A DNA stretch of 63,983 nt, the filler included, from Asterionella formosa (Eukaryota), in assembly GCA_002256025.1 (NCBI GenBank). It is 7 parts of 7 records of this genome, joined end to end, with 100 filler letters (N's around TTAATTAATTAA, not from the genome) between each part and the next. Parts side by side here need not be neighbours in the genome. Positions count along the whole stretch, not along the records: positions 55,364 to 63,983 come from NKIB01011934.1; 6 more parts are not named here. The stretch is one strand, 5' to 3'. Of the stretch, positions 2,476 through 63,983 are shown one piece after another. The translations under genes were made by a program, and so were the position numbers. The notes below the pieces were generated by a model, which was not told the origin of the DNA, searched no databases, and saw only the letters and a list, made by a program, of their open reading frames with translations. Position 1 is the first letter of the stretch. Each line of letters opens with the position of its first letter.

Positions 2476-4690
2476 CCAACACAACTCAGCCAATGTCATT
2501 AACAACAACAACAACAAATGCAGCACATCCTTCTTCTCCAACAACTTCAACACCAAGCAGTAACAATCCTACTGATCTCATTTCCATAGGCCGGTCGAAA
2601 ATGAAGGAGGCTATGGACAATGTGAATTCAAGAGCAATTGAGCTTCCTAAGGAATTCATTATTAGTTGTACAAACAACTTTGCTGCCTTGAAACTAGGTG
2701 AAGGAGCGTTTGGTGCTGTCTACAAAGGCAAGGATGAGAATCAGATTTTTGCTGTTAAATGTATTCTTTTCAATATTGCTGTTGAGAAAAACAAAGTGGA
2801 GGAAGCTACCAAGGGTTTTAAAAGAGAATTGCAGGTGAGCTCATTTGTGGTATCAAATAATGCATTTCGTTTCAAGTCTTTATGTTTCTCATTCTACTGT
2901 CATACTGTTTCAGGCATTAAAGAGGTTCCAACACTCCAATATTGTAACTTTGTATGGCTATCATTTGTCCCCTGATTCGCCTAATCAATACCTTGTGTTT
3001 GAGTATGCATCCAATGGTTCTCTTGATACATTCTATATGAGTGAACAAGAAAGATCAAGTCTCTCAAGTAAGATCCGACTTCGAATCATGTCGGACATTA
3101 TTTGTGCTATCCACTACCTTCATACTGGTACAAAGGACAACCTTGGTCTGTTTCATCATGATATCAAGTCAGCTAATATCTGCCTTGATCAGAACTAAAC
3201 TGCCAAGCTGATTGATTGTGGTCTAGCCAAATTTGTTCTTGTGGATGAATCCATTGAAACCAATAAAAATTTCTTTTCAGTTCAGATCACATCAACTGAT
3301 GGAGTCTTTGGGACACCTGGCTGCAGATGTCCATGGTATTCTAAGGGAGTTAACAAATATGAAGCATCATGTGATGTTTACTCATTTGGCATTGTCATGA
3401 TTGAGCTTGTGACAGGCTGCCTCCAAAATAACAAGTTGGGAGATTTCTCTGAACGCTATTTACCAAGTGATGTCGATGAAAGAACTCCAGCAGATGTAGT
3501 GAAGGAGGCAATTCCAAAATTGATGAAGGATGTTGATCCTCTTGCAGATGAATGGGAAGATGGAATTCTTTCCTCTGTGTGTACAATAGCCATTCATTGC
3601 ATTCAGAACAATCGCACAAAGAGACCAACAACTAATGAATTGGTTGAAAAGTTGGGTCAACTTGTAAGTGGAACAGATCATAATGGGGAATGTGAATTGC
3701 CACAAATGATCACTGCCTTTGACAATCTTAACCTGAATGAAAGCACTTAACAATGTGTCTTGTGTGCCAAGATTCTACTTTGTGGGAATTGCAATGCAGA
3801 GCTGATAAAGGCAATGCAACAATTATCAAAAATAACTATAGTGAACAAGTGAAGTTGATCAGATTGTACCTTTATAATAATTGTGAGCTAGTTAGTCTAA
3901 CACGTCCTAAACAACCATACAGTGGAAATACTGGAACAATGAATGTGAATGAAAGTACCTTACTTTGTATTGTGTTTGGCAAAGGTTCTACTTCTGTTTC
4001 CAATTTCAAATATCATTTCACATGCAGACAATGCTTTGAGGATCATGTCTATACGCATCATGGTGATATGACCATTTAGTGCCCAACCAATGGTTGTGAC
4101 AAGTTCTTTTCTAATACAGACATGATCCAGAGCCAGATCTTGTCTAGCAATCTGTATGACTTTCTTTTGAAGAAACAAGATGAAAATGAGAAATGGTCCA
4201 AGCTCTTGCAAAACCAATCAAGAATTTCTGGAGATGATACCTCATCTAGAGTCACGAGTAACAAAGGCCCTTGGAGTAGAGGCAATGAGTCCCAAAACTG
4301 TCTATATTGTACCACTCAATGAAAAAGTGGAACCAATCTGGAAATGGCCAAAACTTTGGATAAAAACTGAAGTTCAGATATTCTTTGTTTGTCAGCATTC
4401 AGGTGTTGATGTAAAAGAAGCCTTTTTTGCTTACTATGCATGTTACCAGGAAGTGTGTGACAGATGTTGCACCTGATATCAGATGTGCTATGTTTCTTCT
4501 AAAATTTGCAGCACCTATTGGTAAAATTTCAGCTGGTATTGATTTTCCAATTCCAATGGAATCAATTGAGAAATTAGCCAATGAATTGATAAGTGATCCC
4601 CTGAAAGACAAGCTTGATCTAATGCTTTCAAGCAAGCAGCATTTTCTTGAGTTGGATTGGAAGAGGCTAACTCCAATCGTTGGACCATCT
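2451..4690 (+). pseudogene. IRAK/Pelle-like (TKL) kinase followed by RING-like zinc finger and a C-terminal domain; disrupted
   Basis: Motifs LGEGAFGAVYKG and FAVK, a phase-0 intron at 2835-2913 (GTGAGC...TTTCAG), HHDIKSANI, an in-frame TAA at 3196-3198 before TAKLIDCGLAK, then GTPG and DVYSFGIV. These are followed by HFTCRQC...CPTNGC, with further stops and frameshifts up to the TTAGGG tract. Confidence 0.8.
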
Positions 4691-9139: not shown

Positions 9140-9239
9140 NNNNNNNNNNNNNNNNNNNNNNNNNNNNNNNNNNNNNNNNNNNNTTAATTAATTAANNNNN
9201 NNNNNNNNNNNNNNNNNNNNNNNNNNNNNNNNNNNNNNN
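9140..9239. other. Artificial scaffold spacer
   Basis: N44-TTAATTAATTAA-N44 (stops in all six frames). Confidence 0.98.
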
Positions 9240-13366: not shown

Positions 13367-14142
13367 NNNNNNNNNNNNNNNNNNNNNNNNNNNNNNNNNN
13401 NNNNNNNNNNNNNNNNNNNNNNNNNNNNNNNNNNNNNNNNNNNNNNNNNNNNNNNNNNNNNNNNNNNNNNNNNNNNNNNNNNNNNNNNNNNNNNNNNNNN
13501 NNNNNNNNNNNNNNNNNNNNNNNNNNNNNNNNNNNNNNNNNNNNNNNNNNNNNNNNNNNNNNNNNNNNNNNNNNNNNNNNNNNNNNNNNNNNNNNNNNNN
13601 NNNNNNNNNNNNNNNNNNNNNNNNNNNNNNNNNNNNNNNNNNNNNNNNNNNNNNNNNNNNNNNNNNNNNNNNNNNNNNNNNNNNNNNNNNNNNNNNNNNN
13701 NNNNNNNNNNNNNNNNNNNNNNNNNNNNNNNNNNNNNNNNNNNNNNNNNNNNNNNNNNNNNNNNNNNNNNNNNNNNNNNNNNNNNNNNNNNNNNNNNNNN
13801 NNNNNNNNNNNNNNNNNNNNNNNNNNNNNNNNNNNNNNNNNNNNNNNNNNNNNNNNNNNNNNNNNNNNNNNNNNNNNNNNNNNNNNNNNNNNNNNNNNNN
13901 NNNNNNNNNNNNNNNNNNNNNNNNNNNNNNNNNNNNNNNNNNNNNNNNNNNNNNNNNNNNNNNNNNNNNNNNNNNNNNNNNNNNNNNNNNNNNNNNNNNN
14001 NNNNNNNNNNNNNNNNNNNNNNNNNNNNNNNNNNNNNNNNNNNNNNNNNNNNNNNNNNNNNNNNNNNNNNNNNNNNNNNNNNNNNNNNNNNNNNNNNNNN
14101 NNNNNNNNNNNNNNNNNNNNNNNNNNNNNNNNNNNNNNNNNN

Positions 14143-18374: not shown

Positions 18375-18474
18375 NNNNNNNNNNNNNNNNNNNNNNNNNN
18401 NNNNNNNNNNNNNNNNNNTTAATTAATTAANNNNNNNNNNNNNNNNNNNNNNNNNNNNNNNNNNNNNNNNNNNN
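18375..18474. other. Artificial scaffold spacer
   Basis: N44-TTAATTAATTAA-N44. Confidence 0.98.
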
Positions 18475-27603: not shown

Positions 27604-27703
27604 NNNNNNNNNNNNNNNNNNNNNNNNNNNNNNNNNNNNNNNNNNNNTTAATTAATTAANNNNNNNNNNNNNNNNNNNNNNNNNNNNNNNNNNNNNNNNN
27701 NNN
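27604..27703. other. Artificial scaffold spacer
   Basis: N44-TTAATTAATTAA-N44. Confidence 0.98.
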
Positions 27704-36829: not shown

Positions 36830-36929
36830 NNNNNNNNNNNNNNNNNNNNNNNNNNNNNNNNNNNNNNNNNNNNTTAATTAATTAANNNNNNNNNNNNNNN
36901 NNNNNNNNNNNNNNNNNNNNNNNNNNNNN
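36830..36929. other. Artificial scaffold spacer
   Basis: N44-TTAATTAATTAA-N44. Confidence 0.98.
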
Positions 36930-42352: not shown

Positions 42353-43474
42353 CTCCATCCATCCAATAAGGGTTGCAATGACAATTTAAATTAGTCTGGG
42401 AACCTTTTGACTCCTGCGATTTTCTCTGGCTCAACGCCCTTTTTGCGCCTTGCTCTCACCAGCTATAGCTACACATCCATGTTGAAAAAATTTAGAAAGA
42501 TTAAAAATCACGATCTAAATAACACTTTTTGGGCTTTTCGATTTTCACTATTGCCCATCTTGAGCAAAGTGCAGATGCCAGACCCCCTTTATTCTTGCCG
42601 TCACCTCTTCTCAACAAGCATATAAGAAGAAAGATCTAACTCCAGATGAGTGTCAACTTGTGTTGGATTACGTTCTGCAGAACCTCAAAAGAGGAGATGA
42701 TGGGGAGGACAAAATAGATGATTGGCTTGTTTTAGTGTGTGGAACCGTTAAATATTTGGAGGGCAGTTCAAAAGTAGATGAAGCAACCATACAACGTATT
42801 TGGAATCGCATCCATTGCCATAATGGCTGCATGGGATAAAAAAGTGACATGCATTCCACCTTTAAATATATATATTTACTACTACTAGCACAAGTCATTT
42901 ATGGTTTTACGTCTATTCTATTTGTAGTTTAGAGTGTAGAATTATGATTATACAGCTGATCATCTAAATCGAGAATTCCTTCTTTAACAGCATCTTCAAT
43001 CTTGACAATTACGTCAATAAATGTAAAAAGTGCAACTCCATAACTTTGTATTCTCGTTTGCCTTTTGTTTGCTCGATAGAGTCTTTTAGCAGTTCAATAG
43101 CTAATTACTGCAATATGATCAACATAATTAATGGTCTCGAACATATCATGTGCAATTCTCCAGGGAAGATACCCAACTCTGCACCTTTGACTTTGTGGAT
43201 GGAGGTCATAGTCCACTGTCACCTGGATTGCATCCTCGAGTTCTTTGAGGACCTTGTCCAGCACTGCACACCAATAGAAGAAGATCAAAGATCCAACTTT
43301 TCCAGTTGATCCACAACAGTGATTATGGACGCAGCTGTGCCCATAACTGTTTGCCATCAAGCCAAGCATCTGACCATCAGTGATGATGCCATGGGCATAT
43401 CATCGATGTCAACATTCTCTTTGACGATAATGATAATGATGATGATGATGATGATGATGATGAAGATAATGATA

Positions 43475-43521
<47 letters not shown>

Positions 43522-43522
43522 A

Positions 43523-43578
<56 letters not shown>

Positions 43579-43874
43579 AATCATACAAGCAAAATCATCG
43601 CATGAGCATTGTCATGCTTGATATATTCATATACCCAATGTATATGTGTTTGTTCAACTCGTTTCGATTGATTGATTTAGATGCTAATAATTTAATTGCA
43701 AAAACAGAGTCTATATTCATGGCTAGTATGTAACTCATAAAAAGTCCATTCTTTCAAGTAAGCCAACCCTCACATAGAGATTTGGTATTTTTCTATGTAA
43801 TCCGTCTTTAAAAAAGCTGCTTGGCACTTGAGTCACTGCAAATCGATGCTAAGACTGTAATTGGATGGAGGGAG
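42353..43874 (+). mobile_element. Internally rearranged plant-type mariner / Stowaway-like element
   Basis: TA-CTCCATCCATCCAAT ... ATTGGATGGAGGGAG-TA (15-bp TIR, 1 mismatch); transposase N-terminal remnant KKDLTPDECQLV...VDEATIQRIWNR. Confidence 0.75.
43424..43577. repeat. (GAT/AAT)n microsatellite, about 50 units
   Basis: Directly visible. Confidence 0.98.
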
Positions 43875-44165
43875 TACCATTTACCAGTTACTATCCTGTT
43901 GTACCAAATGGATGAATAAAACTGGCATTAATTATTTCCATTCTAAATTTGGGCACGTCTGCGATTATTGAAAAGCTTTGAGGTACTATAAGATTTATTT
44001 TCAATTTCATGATAGTGACATTTTGTATCTGTTTTCCTGCAAATATTTGAGTGGTTGGCTGTTCATGTAAAACAGCATTTGGTGATATGTACATACACGC
44101 TATCAATATTTATGCATGTTGAATTGGTTTCGATTAATTTTTTTAGATGCTAAATAGCAATTTAA

Positions 44166-46047: not shown

Positions 46048-46147
46048 NNNNNNNNNNNNNNNNNNNNNNNNNNNNNNNNNNNNNNNNNNNNTTAATTAAT
46101 TAANNNNNNNNNNNNNNNNNNNNNNNNNNNNNNNNNNNNNNNNNNNN
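46048..46147. other. Artificial scaffold spacer
   Basis: N44-TTAATTAATTAA-N44. Confidence 0.98.
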
Positions 46148-48097: not shown

Positions 48098-51000
48098 CTA
48101 AACCCCAACATTCTTCACCACCACGTCCATGACAGCAACTTCCTTACAGATCTTCTCTAAGTCACTGAAAGGAAAATAACGGTGCTTTTCTCGCAAATCC
48201 ACATTGTGCTCCGGCTGGCCACTGGCACTAGGCTGACCGGGTATTTGTGAAAGGAGAAGTTTCAGATCGGTTGAGCGATTGCTGTACATAGTCTCACCAG
48301 CAAATAGCTGAAGCTCTGTTAATACTGCAGGTTTCAACAGTATCGAGTCACTCTGATCCAGTCGACCACCAGACCCTTTCAGGACCATCAAAGGACCATT
48401 GATTCCTTTAATTGCACTCCCATTAAGTTCGCGATCAATTGAAAGTGTCGCTAGTGATAAGTGAAGCACCTGAGAAAATGGCTTAGCAGATCCTTCAGCT
48501 CTAATGATTCCCTTGGGTCTTGAGCAAAAATCAATAAGGATATCAGCTTCGCGTTCGGAAACAAGTAGGACTTGCCCATTTTGATAGCACACACATGTGT
48601 CTGCCACTCGCAAATAATCAGTGAGTGTCAACACTGATGCTCCTGAAGGGCTTAGCACAGCAGAGAAAAAGTTTCTGGTCCCAAATATACAACTGGACCA
48701 GTTGATTTGATTGATGGTTGTAGGCTGCAGATGGTACTTGATGAAATCTGCCAAATGAATCACTCCAGCATCATCCGGAAGCTGTGAAGGGAGCGTGAAC
48801 AGCGATGCTCTAACATACCAGTCTACTTCACTACGAGGCTGCATTTCAGTTGTTTCCTTTTGTAGTTCCTCTTCACGCTCTCTCTCTAGCTCTCGTTCTC
48901 GCTCACATTCCTCTTCCATACCACCAGATACTCTGACCATTTTTTTCAAGCATCTGGGCTCTCTATTGAAGCTTGGCAATCATAGAATGAGATTCTTTTG
49001 ATTGTCCAATTCCCCTCCCCCCCCCTGTGCGTTCAATGTGATAATTGCTTGCAACTTCGATTGCTACCTTTGCTTCTATATGCTCGTTCAGCTTGGCATA
49101 CATCTCTTCAAGAGAAAGCTTTTCGTCCTCAATACATTTTGTTGGTTTGTGCTTTGTAGTACAATAGAATAGACCCTGATTGGCCCAATCCACAAATCCA
49201 CTCTCATTTGCTGAAACGGTGTTAGCTATAGTCCATGTCAGGACTTCCTTGGCATTAAAAGAATGAGATTTGCAATTCATTCTCATCTCAGCGAAGACAT
49301 CTTGTTGACCAATGATAACAAGTTTCTGCGATCTTCCAATCTTCCTCATCCTGCCAGCTGCTTGCATGAGTTTGTCTTTGCACAAACCAGGTCCGATGGT
49401 TAATAATGCGACTGCAGTAGGTGACAACTTCAAATCTGATCCACGGCATCTTGGCTCATCGAAAATGGCAAAGCATTCATGTTCAGGGATGGATGACAAT
49501 GAAAGTGGTAGGATCTTTCGAAATCGATCCATAATCTTCCACTGTGCAGTATTACCACCTCGAGCCTCTGGGAAGACAACTCCCTGAAACGGAAAGTTCT
49601 TAAGTTGAATAAATTTTGATGCAATATCACAGTTATCATTCCCTGCAAGCAAGGCGCCGGCATCAATGAGCACATGGTACTCCATAATATTCTCAGATAC
49701 CAGAGACAAGATTGCGTAAATGGCTGGTCGTNNNNNNNNNNNNNNNNNNNNNNNNNNNNNNNNNNNNNNNNNNNNNNNNNNNNNNNNNNNNNNNNNNNNN
49801 NNNNNNNNNNNNNNNNNNNNNNNNNNNNNNNNNNNNNNNNNNNNNNNNNNNNNNNNNNNNNNNNNNNNNNNNNNNNNNNNNNNNNNNNNNNNNNNNNNNN
49901 NNNNNNNNNNNNNNNNNNNNNNNNNNNNNNNNNNNNNNNNNNNNNNNNNNNNNNNNNNNNNNNNNNNNNNNNNNNNNNNNNNNNNNNNNNNNNNNNNNNN
50001 NNNNNNNNNNNNNNNNNNNNNNNNNNNNNNNNNNNNNNNNNNNNNNNNNNNNNNNNNNNNNNNNNNNNNNNNNNNNNNNNNNNNNNNNNNNNNNNNNNNN
50101 NNNNNNNNNNNNNNNNNNNNNNNNNNNNNNNNNNNNNNNNNNNNNNNNNNNNNNNNNNNNNNNNNNNNNNNNNNNNNNNNNNNNNNNNNNNNNNNNNNNN
50201 NNNNNNNNNNNNNNNNNNNNNNNNNNNNNNNNNNNNNNNNNNNNNNNNNNNNNNNNNNNNNNNNNNNNNNNTCCTCCTGTAAATCTCGAATCTGTTGGCG
50301 CAGTTGATGAGCTGCCTGTTTCTTTTCAACACTGCTTTCCAATGTGATTCGACGCGTAGGTTGGTATTCAGTTACTCAGCATTGAAAATATCTTGGAGAT
50401 ATACTCTCGAGTACTTCTCTGTTATGAGAAATGTTGCAGCCTGGTTGCTCAAACAAAAGAGTCTGTGGCTAGCCACATGGTTTCTGTCCAAGAAAGATGC
50501 GACTTTTTTTGCCACTTCCCAAGAAAATTTGTCAGATAAAACCATGTGCTGAAGGTCTATGTAAGACAAAGCAGCACCTACACCCGAAAGGACGGAGTTG
50601 AACTTAATTTTGGCGGTCTGGAAGATCAGACAGTATGCAATCCATCTCTCGACTTCGTAATTCAGTTGTCATCATGTCATGCCCACTTTCCACAGGTGCG
50701 CGCCACTTATGGAGCAGGCGTCTGTATTCATCAACTATGCTTTCCAATTTAGTTATTTCATCATCAGAAAATGTGGTGAAAACATTTGTTTCCAGGTCAT
50801 TCATGGCTTTCTTGAATAAGAATTGTTCAATTCCCTTCATTGACGTCCAATTTTTTGGTTCGGTTGGATTCTGTATCAACTCTTTGACCCACATCATAAC
50901 TTCATTGTAGGTAGCCACTGTAAGCTCAGGTGGATCTGGAATAAAACCAATGTTGACCATATTTCTTTCTGAGATGAAATCATCAGAGTCGTCTGATGAT

Positions 51001-52263: not shown

Positions 52264-53111
52264 NNNNNNNNNNNNNNNNNNNNNNNNNNNNNNNNNNNNN
52301 NNNNNNNNNNNNNNNNNNNNNNNNNNNNNNNNNNNNNNNNNNNNNNNNNNNNNNNNNNNNNNNNNNNNNNNNNNNNNNNNNNNNNNNNNNNNNNNNNNNN
52401 NNNNNNNNNNNNNNNNNNNNNNNNNNNNNNNNNNNNNNNNNNNNNNNNNNNNNNNNNNNNNNNNNNNNNNNNNNNNNNNNNNNNNNNNNNNNNNNNNNNN
52501 NNNNNNNNNNNNNNNNNNNNNNNNNNNNNNNNNNNNNNNNNNNNNNNNNNNNNNNNNNNNNNNNNNNNNNNNNNNNNNNNNNNNNNNNNNNNNNNNNNNN
52601 NNNNNNNNNNNNNNNNNNNNNNNNNNNNNNNNNNNNNNNNNNNNNNNNNNNNNNNNNNNNNNNNNNNNNNNNNNNNNNNNNNNNNNNNNNNNNNNNNNNN
52701 NNNNNNNNNNNNNNNNNNNNNNNNNNNNNNNNNNNNNNNNNNNNNNNNNNNNNNNNNNNNNNNNNNNNNNNNNNNNNNNNNNNNNNNNNNNNNNNNNNNN
52801 NNNNNNNNNNNNNNNNNNNNNNNNNNNNNNNNNNNNNNNNNNNNNNNNNNNNNNNNNNNNNNNNNNNNNNNNNNNNNNNNNNNNNNNNNNNNNNNNNNNN
52901 NNNNNNNNNNNNNNNNNNNNNNNNNNNNNNNNNNNNNNNNNNNNNNNNNNNNNNNNNNNNNNNNNNNNNNNNNNNNNNNNNNNNNNNNNNNNNNNNNNNN
53001 NNNNNNNNNNNNNNNNNNNNNNNNNNNNNNNNNNNNNNNNNNNNNNNNNNNNNNNNNNNNNNNNNNNNNNNNNNNNNNNNNNNNNNNNNNNNNNNNNNNN
53101 NNNNNNNNNNN

Positions 53112-55263: not shown

Positions 55264-55363
55264 NNNNNNNNNNNNNNNNNNNNNNNNNNNNNNNNNNNNN
55301 NNNNNNNTTAATTAATTAANNNNNNNNNNNNNNNNNNNNNNNNNNNNNNNNNNNNNNNNNNNN
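55264..55363. other. Artificial scaffold spacer
   Basis: N44-TTAATTAATTAA-N44. Confidence 0.98.
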
Positions 55364-55639: not shown

Positions 55640-58395
55640 TCAGCCAGAGAATTGGATGGCAAGTGTTGATTGGCTGGGCGAAAGATTTTCTTTGTATCCC
55701 CACTCCTTGTTGCTGTCTCTCTTTGGTTTTCTTTATTGTTGATTGATAGTAGGAGCTTACTGATATTTGAACTTTCTCCATGCCTGCCTTTGAAGCCTCA
55801 AATAAATATTTGGCTCTTTCCAAAAACCTGATTTTTTTCCCAATTTTGATTTCAGCAGATCCTCCGGAGTGGTGCTAAAAAATGCTCATCTCTTCGTAAG
55901 ATTTCTCCTTCATGTTGATAATATTTCTTCATCTTTTCATTGTATTCAGATTGTGATGTTAGTTTGTTCTGTCCATTATGTAGCGCCTAGTTCCTTTCAT
56001 GCCATGCTGCTTCCGTGACTTTCCAAAGTTGTGAGATCTCTTGCAAATTGTGAGTAGTGGACTTGGGTCTTGTGCTGAGCTTTGTACCACTTTTCTTCAT
56101 CCTTTGCTCCTGTACCCTCTTAGTGTCAATTTATTTCCCAGAGCGTCTTGTTGGGCAATGGCCTCACGCATGTGGCATTTTGTTGTGAGTGGTGTACCTG
56201 GGGCAAATTTTTGTACGAAACTGTACTGATGTTGCGACATTACATGTTGTAGGTATGCCATCCATACTGAGGATACCCTATCTCCAGTTTTGGACTGTTG
56301 TACTAGGTTTCTAGACATCTGTGAGATTTGGATGTCTCTGTGGTACTTACTACTCTTTGGATGCCTGCAGATGTGCATGTGTTCATTTGCTTCCCGCTCC
56401 CCACAGGGCAAATATGTTTCTATACCCTAGTGCATGATTTGTCTTCTTACCCAGGTTGAGAGCCACCCATGGACATATTTTGTGATCATTGTTTTCGTTG
56501 GACCCGATCGCCCTTTGTATACTGTGGATGGGTTTTCCCAGTCCACTATTTGTTCCCTGTTTTCGTTGTATGTTCCTATAAATAAGCCCTTTATGTTCCA
56601 GATTATATATACTGTCTCATCTGAGCTGCTGTACCTGTGGTGTGGATTCTGGACGTTGCGATGATTGGACTTGCTTGCATCGTCGGTTAATGTGGAGAAT
56701 TTTGCCTTGGTCCCCCGGGCGCTTCATTTGGGCACCTCGCAAGGAAATTTGAGGCCATTGCCTCCGCCACAATGTCCAGTATTGCCGAGGTTGTCAGTTT
56801 ACCATTTACCTCTCTCTTGTTTTGATGTGATTTAATCAGTTTTACCTTCACTAGTGTATGAATGAATTCTGCCAGAAGTGCTGAAACTATGTCTTCATTA
56901 GCCGGGGGACATCCTGTGTGTTTGCTCCATGTTAAAAACCTAACCTGAGCGAAGGCTGCAGCACTGTCTGTCCAAATAGTTACCAATGACGATGTGTCTA
57001 TCTCATGGAACTTGATGAATTCCAGTAGAAACTTCAATGCTGATGCTATTCCAAATAACTCAGCTCGCTCTCGTTGAGCTATTCTGGTTGATATCTCCAT
57101 CTCTACCAGCCCGGAGCAGGCGGCTGTTTGCCTTGGAATCGAACTTCTAGTACTTGTTGTGTGCAGATTCCACGCAAATGAACACCTTGAGTCGGATTCC
57201 ATTAATCTGTCTGTCGCGATGTGAGTTTTGAGACCCAAATGAAATATCTACATAGTCTGCTTCTGGCAGATGCGGTCACGACCATGTTCTTGACTAGATG
57301 AGTCTCCTAGGTTGGTAGTCCTTGCAGTTGTCGCATGAAAGGGGCGCTAAGATCTGGTCTGAGGCTGTCCTCCTTTAATATCCATCATTCTATATGCTAT
57401 ACCTCCTTGGTCATTCACATCACATGGTATGCTGCCCTTTGACTGCGACATTTTTGGTTCTCTGCATGTTTGTTTATTGAATTGAATTGTTCTAGGATCT
57501 GTGGTGGCATTAGCATATGCTTTCCATATTCCCTGTTATTTCTGATATTCCCAGAGAAGTTGCTCGTTCAGTTGGATGTGTGTGAGTCATTCTTGTTTGG
57601 GGTATTTTATCCATTGTCCTAACTGCTGACGCAGAATCACTTTTTAATCTGTTTGTAAGTAAGTTACGTTTTATTGCCATTGTCCATTCTTTTTGTTGCA
57701 GTTTGGTTGGCTTGGCCATTGCCATTTGGTGATCCTTCCTGGTATTCTTGTGCAATCCAAAATTTCTTGCCGCAGTATTCTCCCACCTGCTATTGCAATG
57801 TGTGCCACTATAGTCACTTGTAGATACATTCTGCATGCATTTAATGAAACATTCTGGAATGACAAACCCTTTCTTGCAAAGAGTTGTTGCATAATCATCG
57901 AGTCATCCTGATATTGCTTTTCTGGGCCCCAATGGTTGCTGATCTCAACCATGAATTAATGGGCTCCTAAAAACTTTCTCATATGCATTAGCCATGTTGA
58001 TGTTAAGTACGGAATTACCTCCGCAGTGTTCATCAGTAAGCAAGGGTTCTTTCCATCCCGACTCTAGTTGGCTGGTTCTTAATGCGATGTCCATCATTTC
58101 TGCCACTTCATCCTCTGATGCGTACTTGTGAAATAGGTAATTTTCTGTCGCTCTGATCCCTTGCTCTACACTTAAATCCAACAATTTCAGTACCCCTGAT
58201 AAAATTGGTCTATAGACCACTGCTAGCGGAAATTTTTATTGAAGCCCATTTTCCCCAGACTTGCAATTCTTGCCCTCTTTTGTGCGGCTTCAATTTGTGC
58301 AGATGTCATACTTGTGACTGGTAAGGAGTACGTCATTTGTGCCGCCTATATCCCCCAGTCTGCCTGACTTGTGTCCCTTCTCCACATCTTGTTTG
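55640..58395 (-). mobile_element. 5'-truncated non-LTR retrotransposon with RNase H and C-terminal zinc knuckle, degenerate
   Basis: MGFNKNF-PLAVVYRP...DLSVEQG, LNACRMYLQV, WQWPSQP, RNase H (IATD, RAELFG, WTDS, IKSHQ), and C-GEREANEHMHIC. Confidence 0.85.
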
Positions 58396-58800
58396 ACTGT
58401 GTTTTTTGATGCTAGCATTTGAATACCGGTATTCAAATCCTAATAAGTATAGAACTATTCATTATTGTTTATTTTCATCACTTCGGCAGTTTGAAGAGAA
58501 TAAAGCAAAGTTAGCAAGACATGCTTACTTTGATTTAAAAATTTCTTCCTTTTGCTTTGGACCACCCCTCTATTGCCCCGGTCATTGTCATTTTCTTATT
58601 CAGCCACTTGCCTCATTTTGACATTTTGGCGTTAAGATGAAAATAAATATTTACGTCACTAACAAGTCGTTTTACCCTCGTAAAGCATTATTCATACTTC
58701 GTCCAGTCTACTGTGTACTACAATTGCATGTTACATGTAACAAGGAAGGGCCTTTCTTATCATTCTTTCATTGGTCCTCATTGGTGTAGTATCATCTCCG

Positions 58801-58955
58801 AAATATGATACAAAAATGGCGTTTTTTTTGTGTATCACCAACGGTTCTTTTGGTCTGATCACCGGTGCATCGTGGGTACATCACTGATTTAGTTTTTGGA
58901 CCCCTGACCAATGCTGTATCGATGATACAGCCGTTGATCGCTTTGTATCACATCC
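58801..58955 (-). ncRNA. Candidate ~155-nt structured RNA
   Basis: 15-bp terminal stem and 8-bp inner stem that pair fully (with G-U) only on the minus strand; shares an 18/19-nt upstream motif with the tRNA-like gene at 59207. Confidence 0.35.
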
Positions 58956-59145
58956 GTTGTTGCTGATGAAATAAAATGTGAATTAAATTTTATAGTACAT
59001 TAAAGCTATCCAATAATTGCACTTGTGCCCACCAAATAGATGGACACAATTACTACTGGTTTTATTCGTCCGTACGGTACAACCGGACCTGTCTTTTCAT
59101 CAGCCGCATCACCCGGAACCCTAGGGACTACATGAAAAAGACAGG

Positions 59146-59207
59146 TGGAGAATGCAGGAATCGAACCCGCCATCACAGTGGGTGTGCTTACCACTAAGCC
59201 ATTCCCC
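59146..59207 (-). ncRNA. 62-nt tRNA-Ala-like RNA lacking a normal anticodon arm
   Basis: Acceptor GGGGAAT/ATTCTCC-A with G3-U70, D stem GCTT/AAGC, T arm GCGGG-TTCGATT-CCTGC, A and B boxes, and T5 six nt downstream. Confidence 0.75.
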
Positions 59208-59467
59208 GTTGTTGCTGATAAAATAACTGCAAATACGCAAGCACAACACTACCTTTCAGCTTTGTCAGTCAAACAAGAATCAATAGTCCGCTCATCTCTA
59301 TCATACCTCCTGTCTTCCAACATCGACTATATCTCTATTAATTGGCGCAATGAGCTATAAAAATGGTGGATATAGCTGAAACTTCAGATGCTGCCAATAT
59401 TCCCATTTCGAAAAAGAATCAATGCTGTGCAGCTGATGAGGACCTCAAAGAAATTGTTGAGTTGTCT

Positions 59468-59625
59468 ACTGCTGGTCCAGCTGACATTGACAAGATGGTT
59501 CTTGTTGAAAAGAGGAAACCCCCAACTGCTGGCTGGTACACTTGACATTGAGGCGATGGGTGCACCTGAAAAGAAAATACCTCCAACTGCTGGTATACTT
59601 GACATTGACAAGATGAGTCTTGTCT
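59468..59625 (+). repeat. About 57-61-bp tandem repeat (3 copies), coding-like
   Basis: TAGPADIDKMVLVEKRKPP / TAG-TLDIEAMGAPEKKIPP / TAGILDIDKMSLV, with a frameshift. Confidence 0.65.
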
Positions 59626-60422
59626 ACATTAAATTTATTTCATGTAATTCTTTCCTTTTACTCTCTATATTGACAGGAGGTTGTTGCAAGCCCAAGGTTA
59701 GCAATCTGGTACAAATCACATCTCGCATCACAGAGCTTCCAGGCAATATATACAATGGTTCCACAGTCAGTAAGTAGCCCCAACCAAGGAGTGCCGCTTG
59801 TCTGTGTTACCGGTACTGGTACAGTAAGTACATACTGAAGGTAAGACACAACCGAGGGTGGAGAGGACTGCCTGCAAGTATTCTTGTGTTCGAGGTTTGG
59901 GAGGCGCAAGTATGCAGACCAAACAAACAAGGTCAACCTGCGAGGGCCTCCAAAGTCGAGTACACAAGATTACGAGTAGGCAGACTCCTCTCAAGTAGGG
60001 TCTTAACTAGGCAATTCATAACCTGGCTATTGGCGCGCTTTTCGCCACTACATTGCCCTTTCTGTTAACATTGAAAACCTATTTTAGAATGTTTGTATAT
60101 TGGATGCAAACTAGCCAATTGTCCTTCATGTAAAACATATATTGGATATTTCATAAGTACAGTTTTTGGATGACTCAATCCTGCAATTGACCATCAAATA
60201 AAACATATTTTGTAGATTTCACATGCTCCGTTTTTGGACTACCAAACTACCTTCCATAGTTTCAATACTAGCCCATAGATTTTATTGCCGAAATCGACTG
60301 CTGTTTATTTAAGTGAAATGGATTACTGACATCAATTCCCCCCCTATGGACTGCCGTTTACTTGAGGAAAATCGACTGCCGAAATTGGAAGGGAGTAGGA
60401 TGAGCTACGTGAAGGCACAAAA

Positions 60423-60510
60423 TGATGGTTTTCTGTATCGATGGCAATTCCACTATTTACATCCCTGATGGTTTTCTGTATCGATGGCAATTCCACTATT
60501 TACATCCCTG
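60423..60510. repeat. Perfect 43-bp tandem duplication
   Basis: TGATGGTTTTCTGTATCGATGGCAATTCCACTATTTACATCCC occurs twice. Confidence 0.95.
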
Positions 60511-61065
60511 CTATCTTCCAGCATGCTCCGAGGTATACTAACTCCGTTCATTGATGTCGCTCTCAAACATCGACTCTTCATCCTCAAATGGATCTGGCTT
60601 GTTGCTGGATAATTCGACTCCTTATAGAATTCATATTGTTGCATCCTGCTTGCTTCATCACAGCGGTGGCGCCAAAATTTCGGTTCTCCTTTCTATTGAT
60701 TTCCGATAGCCTTTCCGGTCAACTCCTTCGCTAGATTTGATATGTAGTGATAAATAAATTAATGGTTGCTGTTCAAAAGCGACCTCAATGAGTCGTTGGG
60801 TATAAAACTCAAAACGTTATGGTAGGTCAAAGTTAGGCTTCCATCTTGTCATTGAACCGGTATTTTCGACAGATATGATCAGCCATTAAATTTTAACTAT
60901 ATTTTTGTAGTATGTTTTCTATGTGACCTACACTATCTCAAATCAGATCTTGGCAGCAAGTTTTAGTGCTCTTGTGTTGGCTTTTTTCCGCTGCTCTACA
61001 ATAGTATTGTTTCATTGCTTTCTAATCACAATATTGCTTTTGTTACTTTTATATAATCATCTATA

Positions 61066-61859
61066 ATGACAACGAAAAGTCGTCAATCTCAATGAGCTAT
61101 CGTGAACTCAGCAAAGCAGCTGGAACATGATGGAGCTGGTGTTCTGCATGAAATCGTATTCAACAAGGAAGAGAGGACAGGTAAGTGCTTTTTGATTGTT
61201 GTTGCTATGTTTGAGTTCCCGCCATGGTCGAGCATGCTAATTATAATACATATTTCTTTCTCTTCACAGTGTTGATGAAGGCACCTGTCATGTTTCTCCT
61301 CCACTCCCTGACAATGCCAACAAGTCACCGTCCACTTGTCAAACAATTGTCCAATGAGGTGAAGTATATTTCCAGTTGATTGTTATTGTTTTTCACAAGG
61401 TATAATATAAACACACTGACATTATTTGTTTCTTTTTCTTGTTTCCCCATGCTAGCAAAGCCACTTAATTCGAAACTCGCATGAAAATCGTAAGTTCTTC
61501 AGGATGCCAACAATGTTGGCAACATATCTTGCCAGCACCAACAACATATCACTCCATTAATCCCTGTCATCCTACTCAAACTTGTCCTCCTAAAGTTACA
61601 AAGCCACAAACTCCCACATCAGCCAGTAAATTTTTCGATGCATCCTGCTCCTCCACCTGCCAGATACTACCAGCAGCCTGCACCCCCAGCACCAAACCTC
61701 CGCTATCAACAAGCTGTTGCTCCTCCGCCACCTCCACCACTACAACTTGAAATCAATCCAGAAACCACACACTCCAAATCGATTCATGCATCGGTTTCTG
61801 CTCCTTCAGGCCCGATCAGAAAATTTCTGGAATTTCGTTGTGACAACAAAAAAGTGTGA
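61066..61859 (+). pseudogene. Spliced gene remnant of unknown function
   Basis: Intron-like segments GTAAGT...TTCACAG (61181-61269) and GTGAAG...ATGCTAG (61359-61455) join in frame; Pro/Gln-rich tail; internal stops. Confidence 0.35.
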
Positions 61860-62009
61860 GTTGACAATTGTTAATGAAAATATGTTGACAATTTTCAACA
61901 CTATTTTTCCGCTGACTCATTTCTTTTTTCACTTTTTATTCTACTCGGTTTTCTTAGAGAATTTTATTTTTGCATGTTTGATACTGTGTGCCTGGTGCAA
62001 ATCTTAGTA

Positions 62010-62895
62010 GGATGAATCTTTCCATGGTCTGGTCTATCCACACTGATGTTACTTTTTCCTGTTGTGGTTGCTTTGGTGAACTTTCCTTGACATTGTGGAC
62101 CTAGCTATGTGTATCTCTTATAAACATGATTTTTTGGATGCTGACATGCCATGATGTGTTTATTGTTTTCTCTTGCTCCGCTTGTCTATTCCCTGATGCA
62201 TTGTTAGCAGTCTTCGTGCTCCTGTTGAAAACCAGCCAACCATGGATTTTTTTAGTAAGCAAGCATTGTTGTGGTGGTTCTTCGCTCCTCTCCCCTTTAT
62301 TCAGCTAAGCGTTTTTCCCAGTCGTCTACTTTCTTCTTGTTTTTGTCATATTTCTGCTCAGATCACTGCTTGTACTCTCTAAGCTTTATATTCTGCTGCA
62401 TGTGTTCAGCAGTGGCTGTGTGTAGTATGTGACACTGATCAACAAGTAAGCTGCCCTGCCTGCATCATTGGATAATGAGGGGACATATTATTTCTTTTTG
62501 CTGCAGCCTGCCTGGCACCGCATCATGATGGCGTCAGCCACTACGTTCAGTTGCACTGATGAGCTTAATTGCACTTGCTTGAGCTTTTGAGTCCACCTGA
62601 TTTTCACTGTGACTGGTAGGCTAGTATTGATAACTTCTTCTGTGAGAGACATAATATCAGCATTTTCTGGAAGGTGATGACATGTGTGATTGCTCCATGA
62701 TAGAAAGTTTATTCTCACCACCAGTGCTGCAGCACTATCTGTCCATATGTTTACAACCGAATGTTTAGCTATTAGCTATCTCGTGGAAATAGATAAATTC
62801 CATTAGGAACTTCAGTGCTGAGGCTAAGCCAAATAATTTCACTCTGCCTTGTTGAACTATTTCGCCTGTGGCCCAGAACATGCTGCAGTTTATGT
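62010..62895 (-). mobile_element. Second remnant of the same non-LTR family (RNase H C-half and zinc knuckle)
   Basis: TAACSG, VNIWTDSAAA, LPENADIMSL, QLNVVAD and EQENNKHIMACQHPK align with the 56270-57130 region. Confidence 0.75.
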
Positions 62896-62957
62896 TGGAG
62901 CGTGCAAGAATCAAACCCGCCACCTCATGAGGTGTGCTAGCCACTAAGCCATTCCCC
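62896..62957 (-). ncRNA. Second, more degenerate copy of the 62-nt tRNA-like element
   Basis: 51/62 nt identical to 59146-59207 without gaps; flanks unrelated. Confidence 0.65.
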
Positions 62958-63983
62958 TTTCAGCACTCCAGGAGAGTGGACAGTGGGATTCGCTCAGTGG
63001 AGGAGGCAACCATGATATGGATGGGTTGGTTTAGGCAGTCCAAGCTGACTAAAAATTGCTTGAGCCAACAATGAAATTGAATTGCTCATTTGTATAGACA
63101 GTGTTATTGCTTCTGGTAGATTTGAAGTTCAGAAAATAGCAGGAGACTTTGATTTTGCTTGCTTGCCAAACCGAAATTTTCTGAAGACACAACAATCAAA
63201 GGTTGGTTCATGCGTGAAATTGGTTGGTGCTCTTAGATATCCTGGTCTAGAAATGCATCTCATTGTTTTTTGATGGACATCTTTTGATTACTCTTTGTTT
63301 GAAAGTACTTTACAAAGACAAAAATACAATTTTTTGTGATATTCATTTACAAATTTATTAAGAAAATTTGTTGTAACACTTATTTTCTTGTAGCAATTTC
63401 GACAATGAATGATAGTCTATTAGATTGCTGATTCCTCCTGTCTAGTAGAGAGTCTGGTCCATTAGTCGATGTTATCATTGGGGAAGGGGGAAGGGATGAG
63501 GGAATGGGATTTTAGAGGACCACCTATTCTGATTTTCATCACTGATTAACAACAATTTCGGAAATGAGATGGACACCACTGGAAGGTGGCATGATTTTCT
63601 CTTTTGTTGGAGTTGTTTATTTAGTGGTTGATTTAACAATAAACTATAGGAGAACATGCATCTTATAATGTATTCTTCTTAATTTGTTATTTATTGATCA
63701 AGCCAAATTCATGCCACCTTATTTCTGATAAAAGAAATTGAATCAACATAAAGACAAGATGGGCGGCATGAAGTAGAAAAGCTAATGAAATGAATGCTAG
63801 GAATAAAAAAACTAAACCCAACTAGATTTAGAATGTTTAAAAATTGGTTTGAAACAAGTGTACACTTTGTTTGCTTGGTTCCTAGGATTTTAAAGTCAGG
63901 AAGTTCCTTCCAAACACCTTTTCCCAATGGTCCACAGAAAACTGTGATTAAAAACTTGTAAACAACATTGTGTGCTCGTGGTG

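Follow-up and report, generated by a model that had tools for sequence, protein, structure and literature searches.

A tRNA-like sequence lacking a full anticodon arm is very probably the head of an abundant SINE family in a freshwater alga

tRNA-derived SINEs are short, non-coding repeat units that carry a tRNA-related 5' head with motifs resembling the A and B boxes, and that occur as very many dispersed copies with variable flanks, a flanking duplication and neutral-looking decay. The tRNA from which such a head descends can be an alanine tRNA, as in the rodent ID/BC1 SINE. SINEs in unicellular algae are poorly characterised; the Cyclotella cryptica genome paper states that they have only recently been annotated in diatoms and were earlier thought absent from unicellular eukaryotes (PMC7466962), and a table within the Pleurosigma genome paper lists SINEs (PMC12803021).

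Two other kinds of RNA invite comparison with a very short tRNA-like sequence. RNAs of the mascRNA/MALAT1 type are cloverleaf-like, measure about 61-62 nt and have a reduced anticodon arm, as does the sequence described here, and arise at a single locus by cleavage of a long Pol II transcript, whereas the algal sequence is part of a high-copy retroposon. Canonical tRNA-Ala has in common with it the G3-U70 pair, A73 and paired acceptor and T arms; the algal sequence departs from it in having no 7-nt anticodon loop, in scoring below the Rfam threshold and in not being called by ARAGORN. Minihelices consisting of an acceptor and T arm with G3-U70 are substrates of alanyl-tRNA synthetase (AlaRS).

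Here, we describe the analysis of a 62-nt sequence in a 63,983-nt stretch of DNA (the window), composed of seven parts of the Asterionella formosa assembly GCA_002256025.1 joined end to end. A preliminary description had read this sequence as an anticodon-less tRNA-Ala mimic. We present evidence that it is, with high probability, the tRNA-derived 5' head of a very abundant SINE family in a freshwater alga. The family displays the properties of tRNA-derived SINEs listed above, and is set apart from known families by its 62-nt head with a 15-nt middle, a T5 run conserved 6 nt behind the head, the lack of an A-rich tail and of a partner LINE found in the window, and a unicellular freshwater host. 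A SINE is an ordinary kind of repeat and not a new class of RNA gene, and the family itself is apparently undescribed in the open-access literature searched, in which a word search found no description of it. The main value of the analysis is that a false lead is cleared, since on our reading the supposed mimic serves an abundant retroposon as its promoter head.

The tRNA-like head and its second copy

The window contains two copies of the head, both on the minus strand:

59146-59207, minus strand: tRNA-related head of SINE copy 1, 62 nt (sequence, Rfam tRNA match, covariance model R1 at 91.5 bits, repeat boundary at 59207)
62896-62957, minus strand: decayed, head-only copy 2 (covariance model R1 at 85.9 bits, homology to copy 1)

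The letters quoted in the preliminary description for copy 1 agree exactly with the minus strand at 59146-59207, and the arms that it recognised are present. The acceptor stem (GGGGAAT/ATTCTCC) comprises 7 bp, all of them paired, the third being the G-U pair G3-U70, and is followed at its 3' end by A73; the D arm (GCTT-AGTGGT-AAGC) has a 4-bp stem, and the T arm reads GCGGG-TTCGATT-CCTGC. Between these arms lies a shortened middle of 15 nt (ACACCCACTGTGATG), where about 22 nt would be expected for an anticodon arm plus variable loop. A single base, G, separates the acceptor and D stems, and the stem of the middle carries one C-A mismatch. Two segments of the head, TGGCTTAGTGG and GGTTCGATTCC, fit what we take to be the box A and box B consensus of Pol III promoters.

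The Rfam tRNA model aligns with copy 1 over its full length, 5 nt taking the place of 13 anticodon-arm positions, and scores 28.8 bits where the gathering score is 29; in this search of 551 nt the E value is 5.9e-4. The original observation is real, the head is clearly tRNA-derived, and its likeness to tRNA exceeds chance. An 18-nt word from the T arm has two matches at no more than three mismatches, compared to an expectation of 0.00. Searches of the whole window with ARAGORN returned 0 tRNA genes and 0 tmRNAs, and Rfam at its gathering thresholds returned 0 matches. A functional tRNA-Ala was rejected on these results, on the lack of a 5-bp anticodon stem with a 7-nt loop, and on the failure of the Rfam tRNA model to match copy 2 even at E<=10; a tmRNA was rejected because neither ARAGORN nor Rfam reported one. 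Thermodynamic folding is undistinctive (z -1.0 and -0.3).

The second copy, of equal length, had also been noticed before and is confirmed: it is 82% identical to copy 1 over 65 nt, the homology consisting of the head plus about 3 nt, with unlike flanks on either side. Its divergence is concentrated in the middle, as had been stated, 5 of the 11 differences within the 62 nt falling in the 15-nt segment, which in copy 2 (CACCTCATGAGGTG) is a perfect palindrome. Copy 2 has two mismatches in the acceptor stem and one in the D stem, and its T loop is changed to TTTGATT. A covariance model (R1) built from three heads, namely copies 1 and 2 and one from a marine-metagenome contig (L015, described below), matched only copies 1 and 2 in the window when run with its filters off. 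All three of these heads have GU at alignment pair 3-59, which corresponds to G3-U70. The simplest account is that G3-U70 and A73 were inherited from a parent tRNA, possibly a tRNA-Ala. For this parent the databases gave a single hint, a match of 30 nt to phage tRNA-Ala genes (E 0.3), which stood beside a match to tRNA-Thr (E 1).

A retroposed unit present in very many copies

The head of copy 1 is not a stand-alone gene; it belongs to a retroposed unit that spans 58975-59207 on the minus strand (about 233 nt) and lies within a larger repeat:

59135-59145, minus strand: trailer CCTGTC followed by T5, directly behind the head (conserved across the family)
58981-59134, minus strand: SINE body (contig joints, depth peak, conservation in 63 ORFs)
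about 59024-59111, minus strand: segment of ~88 nt within the SINE body that is absent from some family members (contig joints)
58968-58980, minus strand: T/A-rich 3' end of the unit (CACATTTTATTTC), including TTTT (from the end of family homology to the downstream duplication)
58954-58967, no strand assigned: downstream copy of the 14-nt target-site duplication (exact direct repeat)
59206-59219, no strand assigned: upstream copy of the 14-nt target-site duplication, including CAACAA (overlaps the first two G of the head)
58790-61940, no strand assigned: high-copy repeat region enclosing copy 1 (summed depth 84,894-900,191; edge bins 7,493 and 5,840)

The 14-mer at 58954-58967 and 59206-59219 is the sole exact direct repeat of at least 14 nt at a spacing of 150-400 in the 63,983-nt window. 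Since copy 2 and L015 both start with GGGG behind unrelated flanks, the true duplication is probably 12 nt, extended by 2 nt of chance identity or microhomology. The CAACAA reported upstream of the head is present, and belongs to this duplication instead of standing as a separate upstream element. Likewise, the T5 reported downstream is found at 59139-59135, 6 nt past A73, but as a conserved internal feature of the family and not as a gene-specific terminator. At the other end of the unit, 13 T/A-rich bases separate the end of family homology (58981) from the duplication, without a poly(A) or simple-repeat tail, and neither a LINE-like partner sequence nor a shared LINE 3' tail corresponding to the SINE tail was found within the window. 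The unit is short and non-autonomous; its open frame of 62-80 codons has no Pfam match.

Independent copies of the family were recognised among translated sequences. An open frame passes through copy 1 at 59006-59248 on the minus strand, and 63 of 64 candidate predicted ORFs from other contigs (ENA, JGI and NCBI assemblies) match it at E<=0.01, in a set that is ascertained for open frames. In the last six columns of the upstream flank the commonest residue accounts for a share of 0.12-0.36 (14-20 rows), and from the first codon of the head on it accounts for 0.83-0.97 (24 rows). Within the unit this share is 0.90 in the 5' part of the head, 0.73 in its middle, the anticodon-arm remnant and most variable part of the head, 0.84 in the T arm and acceptor, 0.93 in the trailer including the codons of the T-run, and 0.79 in the body. 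The T-run codons C-L-F are retained in 92-98% of the 63 related ORFs. With 0.79 against 0.73-0.90, body and head are conserved to about the same degree, a sign that the copies are young and not that an RNA is under selection. The subfamily consensus reads Val-Val where copy 1 reads Val-Met, and L015 has a G at the mismatched position, indicating that the C-A mismatch in the middle stem of copy 1 is a private change.

Contigs from four public runs (X1, X15, X18 and X20) were aligned to 58000-63900 at a likeness of at least 80%; the runs that carry this stretch are labelled as algae and freshwater metagenomes, X1 being a DNA run and X18 and X20 RNA runs. A conserved protein of the CobW type encoded in the window assigns it to Eukaryota and no more narrowly. 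From X1 alone, 21,907 contigs were placed on these 5.9 kb. Their summed depth, which is not a copy number and is taken here as "very many copies" only, peaks at 900,191 in the bin that holds the head (58985-59181) and is roughly 85,000-480,000 for most bins across 58788-61939. It is 3,353-3,559 at 62137-62727, and 551-640 at the unique flank 58000-58393, where a single-copy contig of 2,784 nt has a depth of 414. A 233-nt contig of X15 is identical to the unique part of the window at 62571-62803, and the source of X15 is thus the same or a very close organism.

The contigs also delimit the unit. Just past 59207, the first base of the head, 40 X1 contigs depart into unlike, AT-rich sequence (agreement 0.4), and loose ends at 58973 (45 X1 contigs) and 58981 (50 X1 contigs) likewise lead into unlike sequence. 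The whole unit is covered by one X15 contig (58989-59207; 18 other letters and 4 gaps, roughly 90% identity) and by one contig of the RNA run X18 (58995-59206, roughly 90% identity), both of which run on unaligned past one or both ends of the match. Contigs from all four runs contain joints that skip 83-119 nt, from about 59016-59032 to 59112-59136, and represent subfamilies whose body is shorter. At 59172, 106 X1 and 28 X18 contigs switch to a different middle that is equally short and in which a 5-bp stem with a 4-nt loop is possible; the equal length of these alternative middles indicates that the shortened arm is family-wide and ancestral. The repeat contigs of X18 and X20 are contig-level data in which DNA carry-over is possible, and are silent on the head as a small RNA and on the start, end and strand of any transcript.

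Thus, many dispersed copies with unrelated flanks are evident both from the heterogeneous contig ends on either side and from the 63 ORF copies, which are unlike one another upstream. The high copy number, the sharp 5' boundary, the 14-nt duplication and a body of about 170 nt common to the copies bear out what had been the fallback reading of the preliminary description, namely the head of an unusual SINE. It had also named a long conserved tail common to the copies as the mark of an ordinary tRNA-derived SINE, and such a tail is found in the 63 protein-level relatives and in the aligned contigs. Among such elements the family is unusual in its very small 62-nt head, the conserved T-run behind it, the clear target-site duplication and the very high copy number. 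The family is of modest value in its own right: it would help to annotate repeats and to avoid false calls of tRNAs and ncRNAs, and would offer a marker for phylogenetic or population studies.

Propagation of the family and competing explanations

We propose that the anticodon arm would already have been shortened in the founder of the SINE family and would have no decoding role. Pol III would start transcription of source copies at the internal promoter of the head, which resembles the A and B boxes, and read-through past the T-run would yield transcripts that include the body and tail. The reverse transcriptase of an autonomous element would then copy these transcripts into new AT-rich sites, creating the duplication. 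One feature sits uneasily with the SINE reading, in that a conserved T5 6 nt behind the head should stop Pol III, which does not fit simply with transcription of the entire unit. Either T5 is a weak terminator and the family propagates by read-through, or most transcription ends at T5.

The internal T5, in speaking against simple propagation by Pol III, is also the point at which another origin of the unit has to be weighed, namely that it is a repeat of a different kind, such as a DNA-transposon derivative (MITE) or a piece of some larger element, which captured a tRNA pseudogene and carries the head as a passenger instead of as a promoter. This would be in keeping with the lack of an A-rich tail and of a partner LINE found in the window, and with the position of the unit inside a 3-kb high-copy region. 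However, homology begins exactly at the first base of the head in 20-24 ORF copies and 40 contigs, as expected under the SINE reading because transcription would start there. Furthermore, a terminal inverted repeat between the ends of the unit is not apparent by eye, and a target duplication of 12-14 nt would be long for a cut-and-paste transposon. We consider such a capture improbable.

The preliminary description had preferred a Pol III family of processable, alanylatable but non-decoding RNAs, and had proposed stem covariation as a check. In its fullest form this explanation holds that the heads are functional Pol III genes, standing alone or exapted from the SINE, whose precursor of about 75 nt would be cut by RNase P and RNase Z to 62 nt, receive CCA and be charged by AlaRS through G3-U70, yielding a pool of non-decoding Ala-RNA. 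Much in copy 1 would suit it: a perfect acceptor stem, G3-U70, A73 and motifs resembling the A and B boxes, with G3-U70 recurring in 3 of 3 heads and the T-run behind the head kept in at least 92% of the 63 copies. The covariation check speaks against it, as none of the 21 pairs shows a compensatory change among the three DNA heads, where G-U arises at two pairs and pairing is absent from 7 of 63 cells. Moreover, the substitutions in copy 2 break pairs, and the similar conservation of body and head noted above is contrary to selection on the head alone. With no covariation, and with the head lying inside a larger repeat unit, the earlier preference is unsupported, and we judge it very improbable that the heads are functional genes.

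A related idea grants that the heads belong to a SINE. A T-run stands 6 bases past an intact-looking G3-U70/A73 minihelix in nearly every copy, and hundreds to thousands of heads could for this reason be short Pol III units. That such units would supply a pool of CCA-tailed, 62-nt, Ala-charged and non-decoding RNA is a conjecture from sequence features to which we assign only a slight chance. If it were true, this transposon-borne pool of Ala-RNA could titrate AlaRS or feed tRNA-fragment pathways and other tRNA-dependent pathways.

Two further explanations deserve hardly any credence. On the plus strand, in repeat-rich surroundings, the sequence TGGAGAATGCAGG... opens like the complement of a tRNA 3' end, as would an over-extended primer-binding site behind the LTR of an LTR retrotransposon; this is rejected because there are no LTRs, neither 56000-63983 by itself nor 58700-62100 compared with the remainder of the window showing a long direct repeat, because the unit, enclosed by a duplication, extends from the tRNA-like 5' end over about 230 nt, and because the bases beside the 3' end are CCT, not CCA. 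Nor is it at all likely that the conserved 62-codon frame (MVSTPTVVAGSIPAFSTCLFHVVPR...) is a real small protein gene of the repeat family whose tRNA likeness is incidental, for although 63 ORFs with an equal frame and stop are predicted on other contigs, this set was ascertained for open frames, its starts are mostly alternative-start calls inside the head, the alignment contains many frameshifted variants with differing C-termini, Pfam gives no match, and the tRNA model match spans the full head.

Neighbouring repeats and relatives beyond the window

Copy 2 and the body of copy 1 have the following neighbours and relatives in the window:

62313-62891, minus strand: 5'-truncated RNase H-like fragment, oriented like copy 2 and abutting its 3' end (paralogous to 56533-57083)
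56687-57247, minus strand: longer paralogue with a 186-aa open frame and no tRNA-like head (sequence similarity; RNase H assignment weak)
43894-44000, plus strand: tail-only relative of the SINE body that lacks an upstream head (sequence similarity, 76% over 108 nt)

The homology between the fragment and its paralogue reaches to about 4 nt from the 3' end of the copy 2 head (a local alignment equalled by 12 of 500 shuffles) and stops at copy 2, with none upstream of the head. The letters TCCAA are common to both sides at the junction, and a search for flanking direct repeats of at least 8 nt around copy 2 found none. By analogy with the U6-L1 chimeras of mammals, which are retrocopies produced by template switching of reverse transcriptase, we infer that copy 2 may be an old head-only copy joined by such a switch to a 5'-truncated RNase H-like element. 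Copy 2 resembles these retrocopies in that a full-length part like a small RNA runs at its 3' end into a 5'-truncated repeat of the same orientation, and differs from them in its partner, whose likeness to RNase H is weak, and in the flanking duplication, which was not found for copy 2. Homology of the head itself to the open frame at 56687-57247 was considered and rejected: the MAFFT alignment and a 10-nt exact match in the T loop (57135-57144) are due to chance (z 0.3-0.6 against shuffles).

Paralogous, low-copy repeat fragments occupy 56430-58235 and 62313-62891 on the minus strand and are weakly RNase H-like, with the motifs DGS, RAELFG and TDS. The ORF has 32 relatives among 1.84 billion representatives, nearly all of them short and without a Pfam match, and no longer relatives were found. 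The motif order DGS...RAEL...TDS recurs in three of these relatives (P0001-P0003), and Pfam RNase_H matches 3 of 20 (best E 0.005). The 186-aa ORF itself has no Pfam match, and a profile search of the PDB returned 0 matches. Its AlphaFold model, of low confidence (pLDDT 63), has the order strand-strand-strand-helix-strand-helix-helix-strand-helix; Foldseek gave nothing at E<=0.001, and the rows of highest probability were foamy-virus RT/RNase H (0.72 and 0.69). Together, sequence and model point weakly to an RNase H-like family. A long trinucleotide microsatellite, which reads as poly-Met, poly-Asp or poly-Ile depending on the frame, lies at 43390-43610, about 300 nt upstream of the tail-only relative.

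The region at 58790-61940 is probably another element into which the SINE inserted. At 58789 other contigs share one consistent continuation (agreement 0.86-1.0), which indicates that the host element in the window is truncated or interrupted there. This region of about 3 kb contains no long ORF. It includes a 61-nt tandem repeat at 59468-59623 (3 units, 61-84% alike), whose plus strand reads as a repeated peptide, and, at 60423-60508, a 43-nt stretch that is exactly duplicated in tandem.

Beyond the window, metagenomes were scanned with a pattern in which the D-arm word is followed at a short distance by the T-loop word. The scan yielded 48 loci, among which only L015 belongs to the SINE family (R1 92.1 bits, against 39.9 for the next best); pattern scans for the head words gave 0 matches in viral contigs and 0 in prokaryote reference genomes. 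L015 is a marine-metagenome contig of 1,493 nt that is 93% identical to copy 1 over 75 nt, comprising the head and 13 nt of trailer, and that reads TTATT where copy 1 has the T-run. Like copy 2, it carries the head (in L015 with these 13 nt) without the family body. In L015:1-857 the head copy lies beside a truncated gene for a tail tape-measure protein like that of Flavobacterium phages, the 5' flank corresponding to the middle of this protein (32-38% identical to Flavobacterium phages) and breaking off near the head. Neither the tape-measure protein nor phage or plasmid records match the 3' flank. Because the head words are absent from the prokaryote genomes and viral contigs, L015 is more likely a chimeric low-coverage contig than a phage-borne copy.

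About 21 of the 48 loci (among them L005, L013, L017, L023 and L029; Ga0056124 and Ga0209052) form an unrelated, abundant family of tRNA-like repeats, which has the same D-arm and T-loop words as the SINE, a shortened D-to-T spacing and a common downstream sequence. It probably represents a SINE from another eukaryote, and its existence indicates that short-armed tRNA-like heads are common in repeats. Two further loci, L024 and L047, have 3 to 4 R1 matches each, one with a short D-to-T spacing, and look like tRNA gene clusters.

Elsewhere in the window, paired 44-nt runs of N occur about every 9.2 kb (9140-9239, 18375-18474, 27604-27703, 36830-36929, 46048-46147 and 55264-55363), along with three longer runs (13367-14142, 49732-50271 and 52264-53111); this pattern of N reflects masking or scaffolding and not biology.
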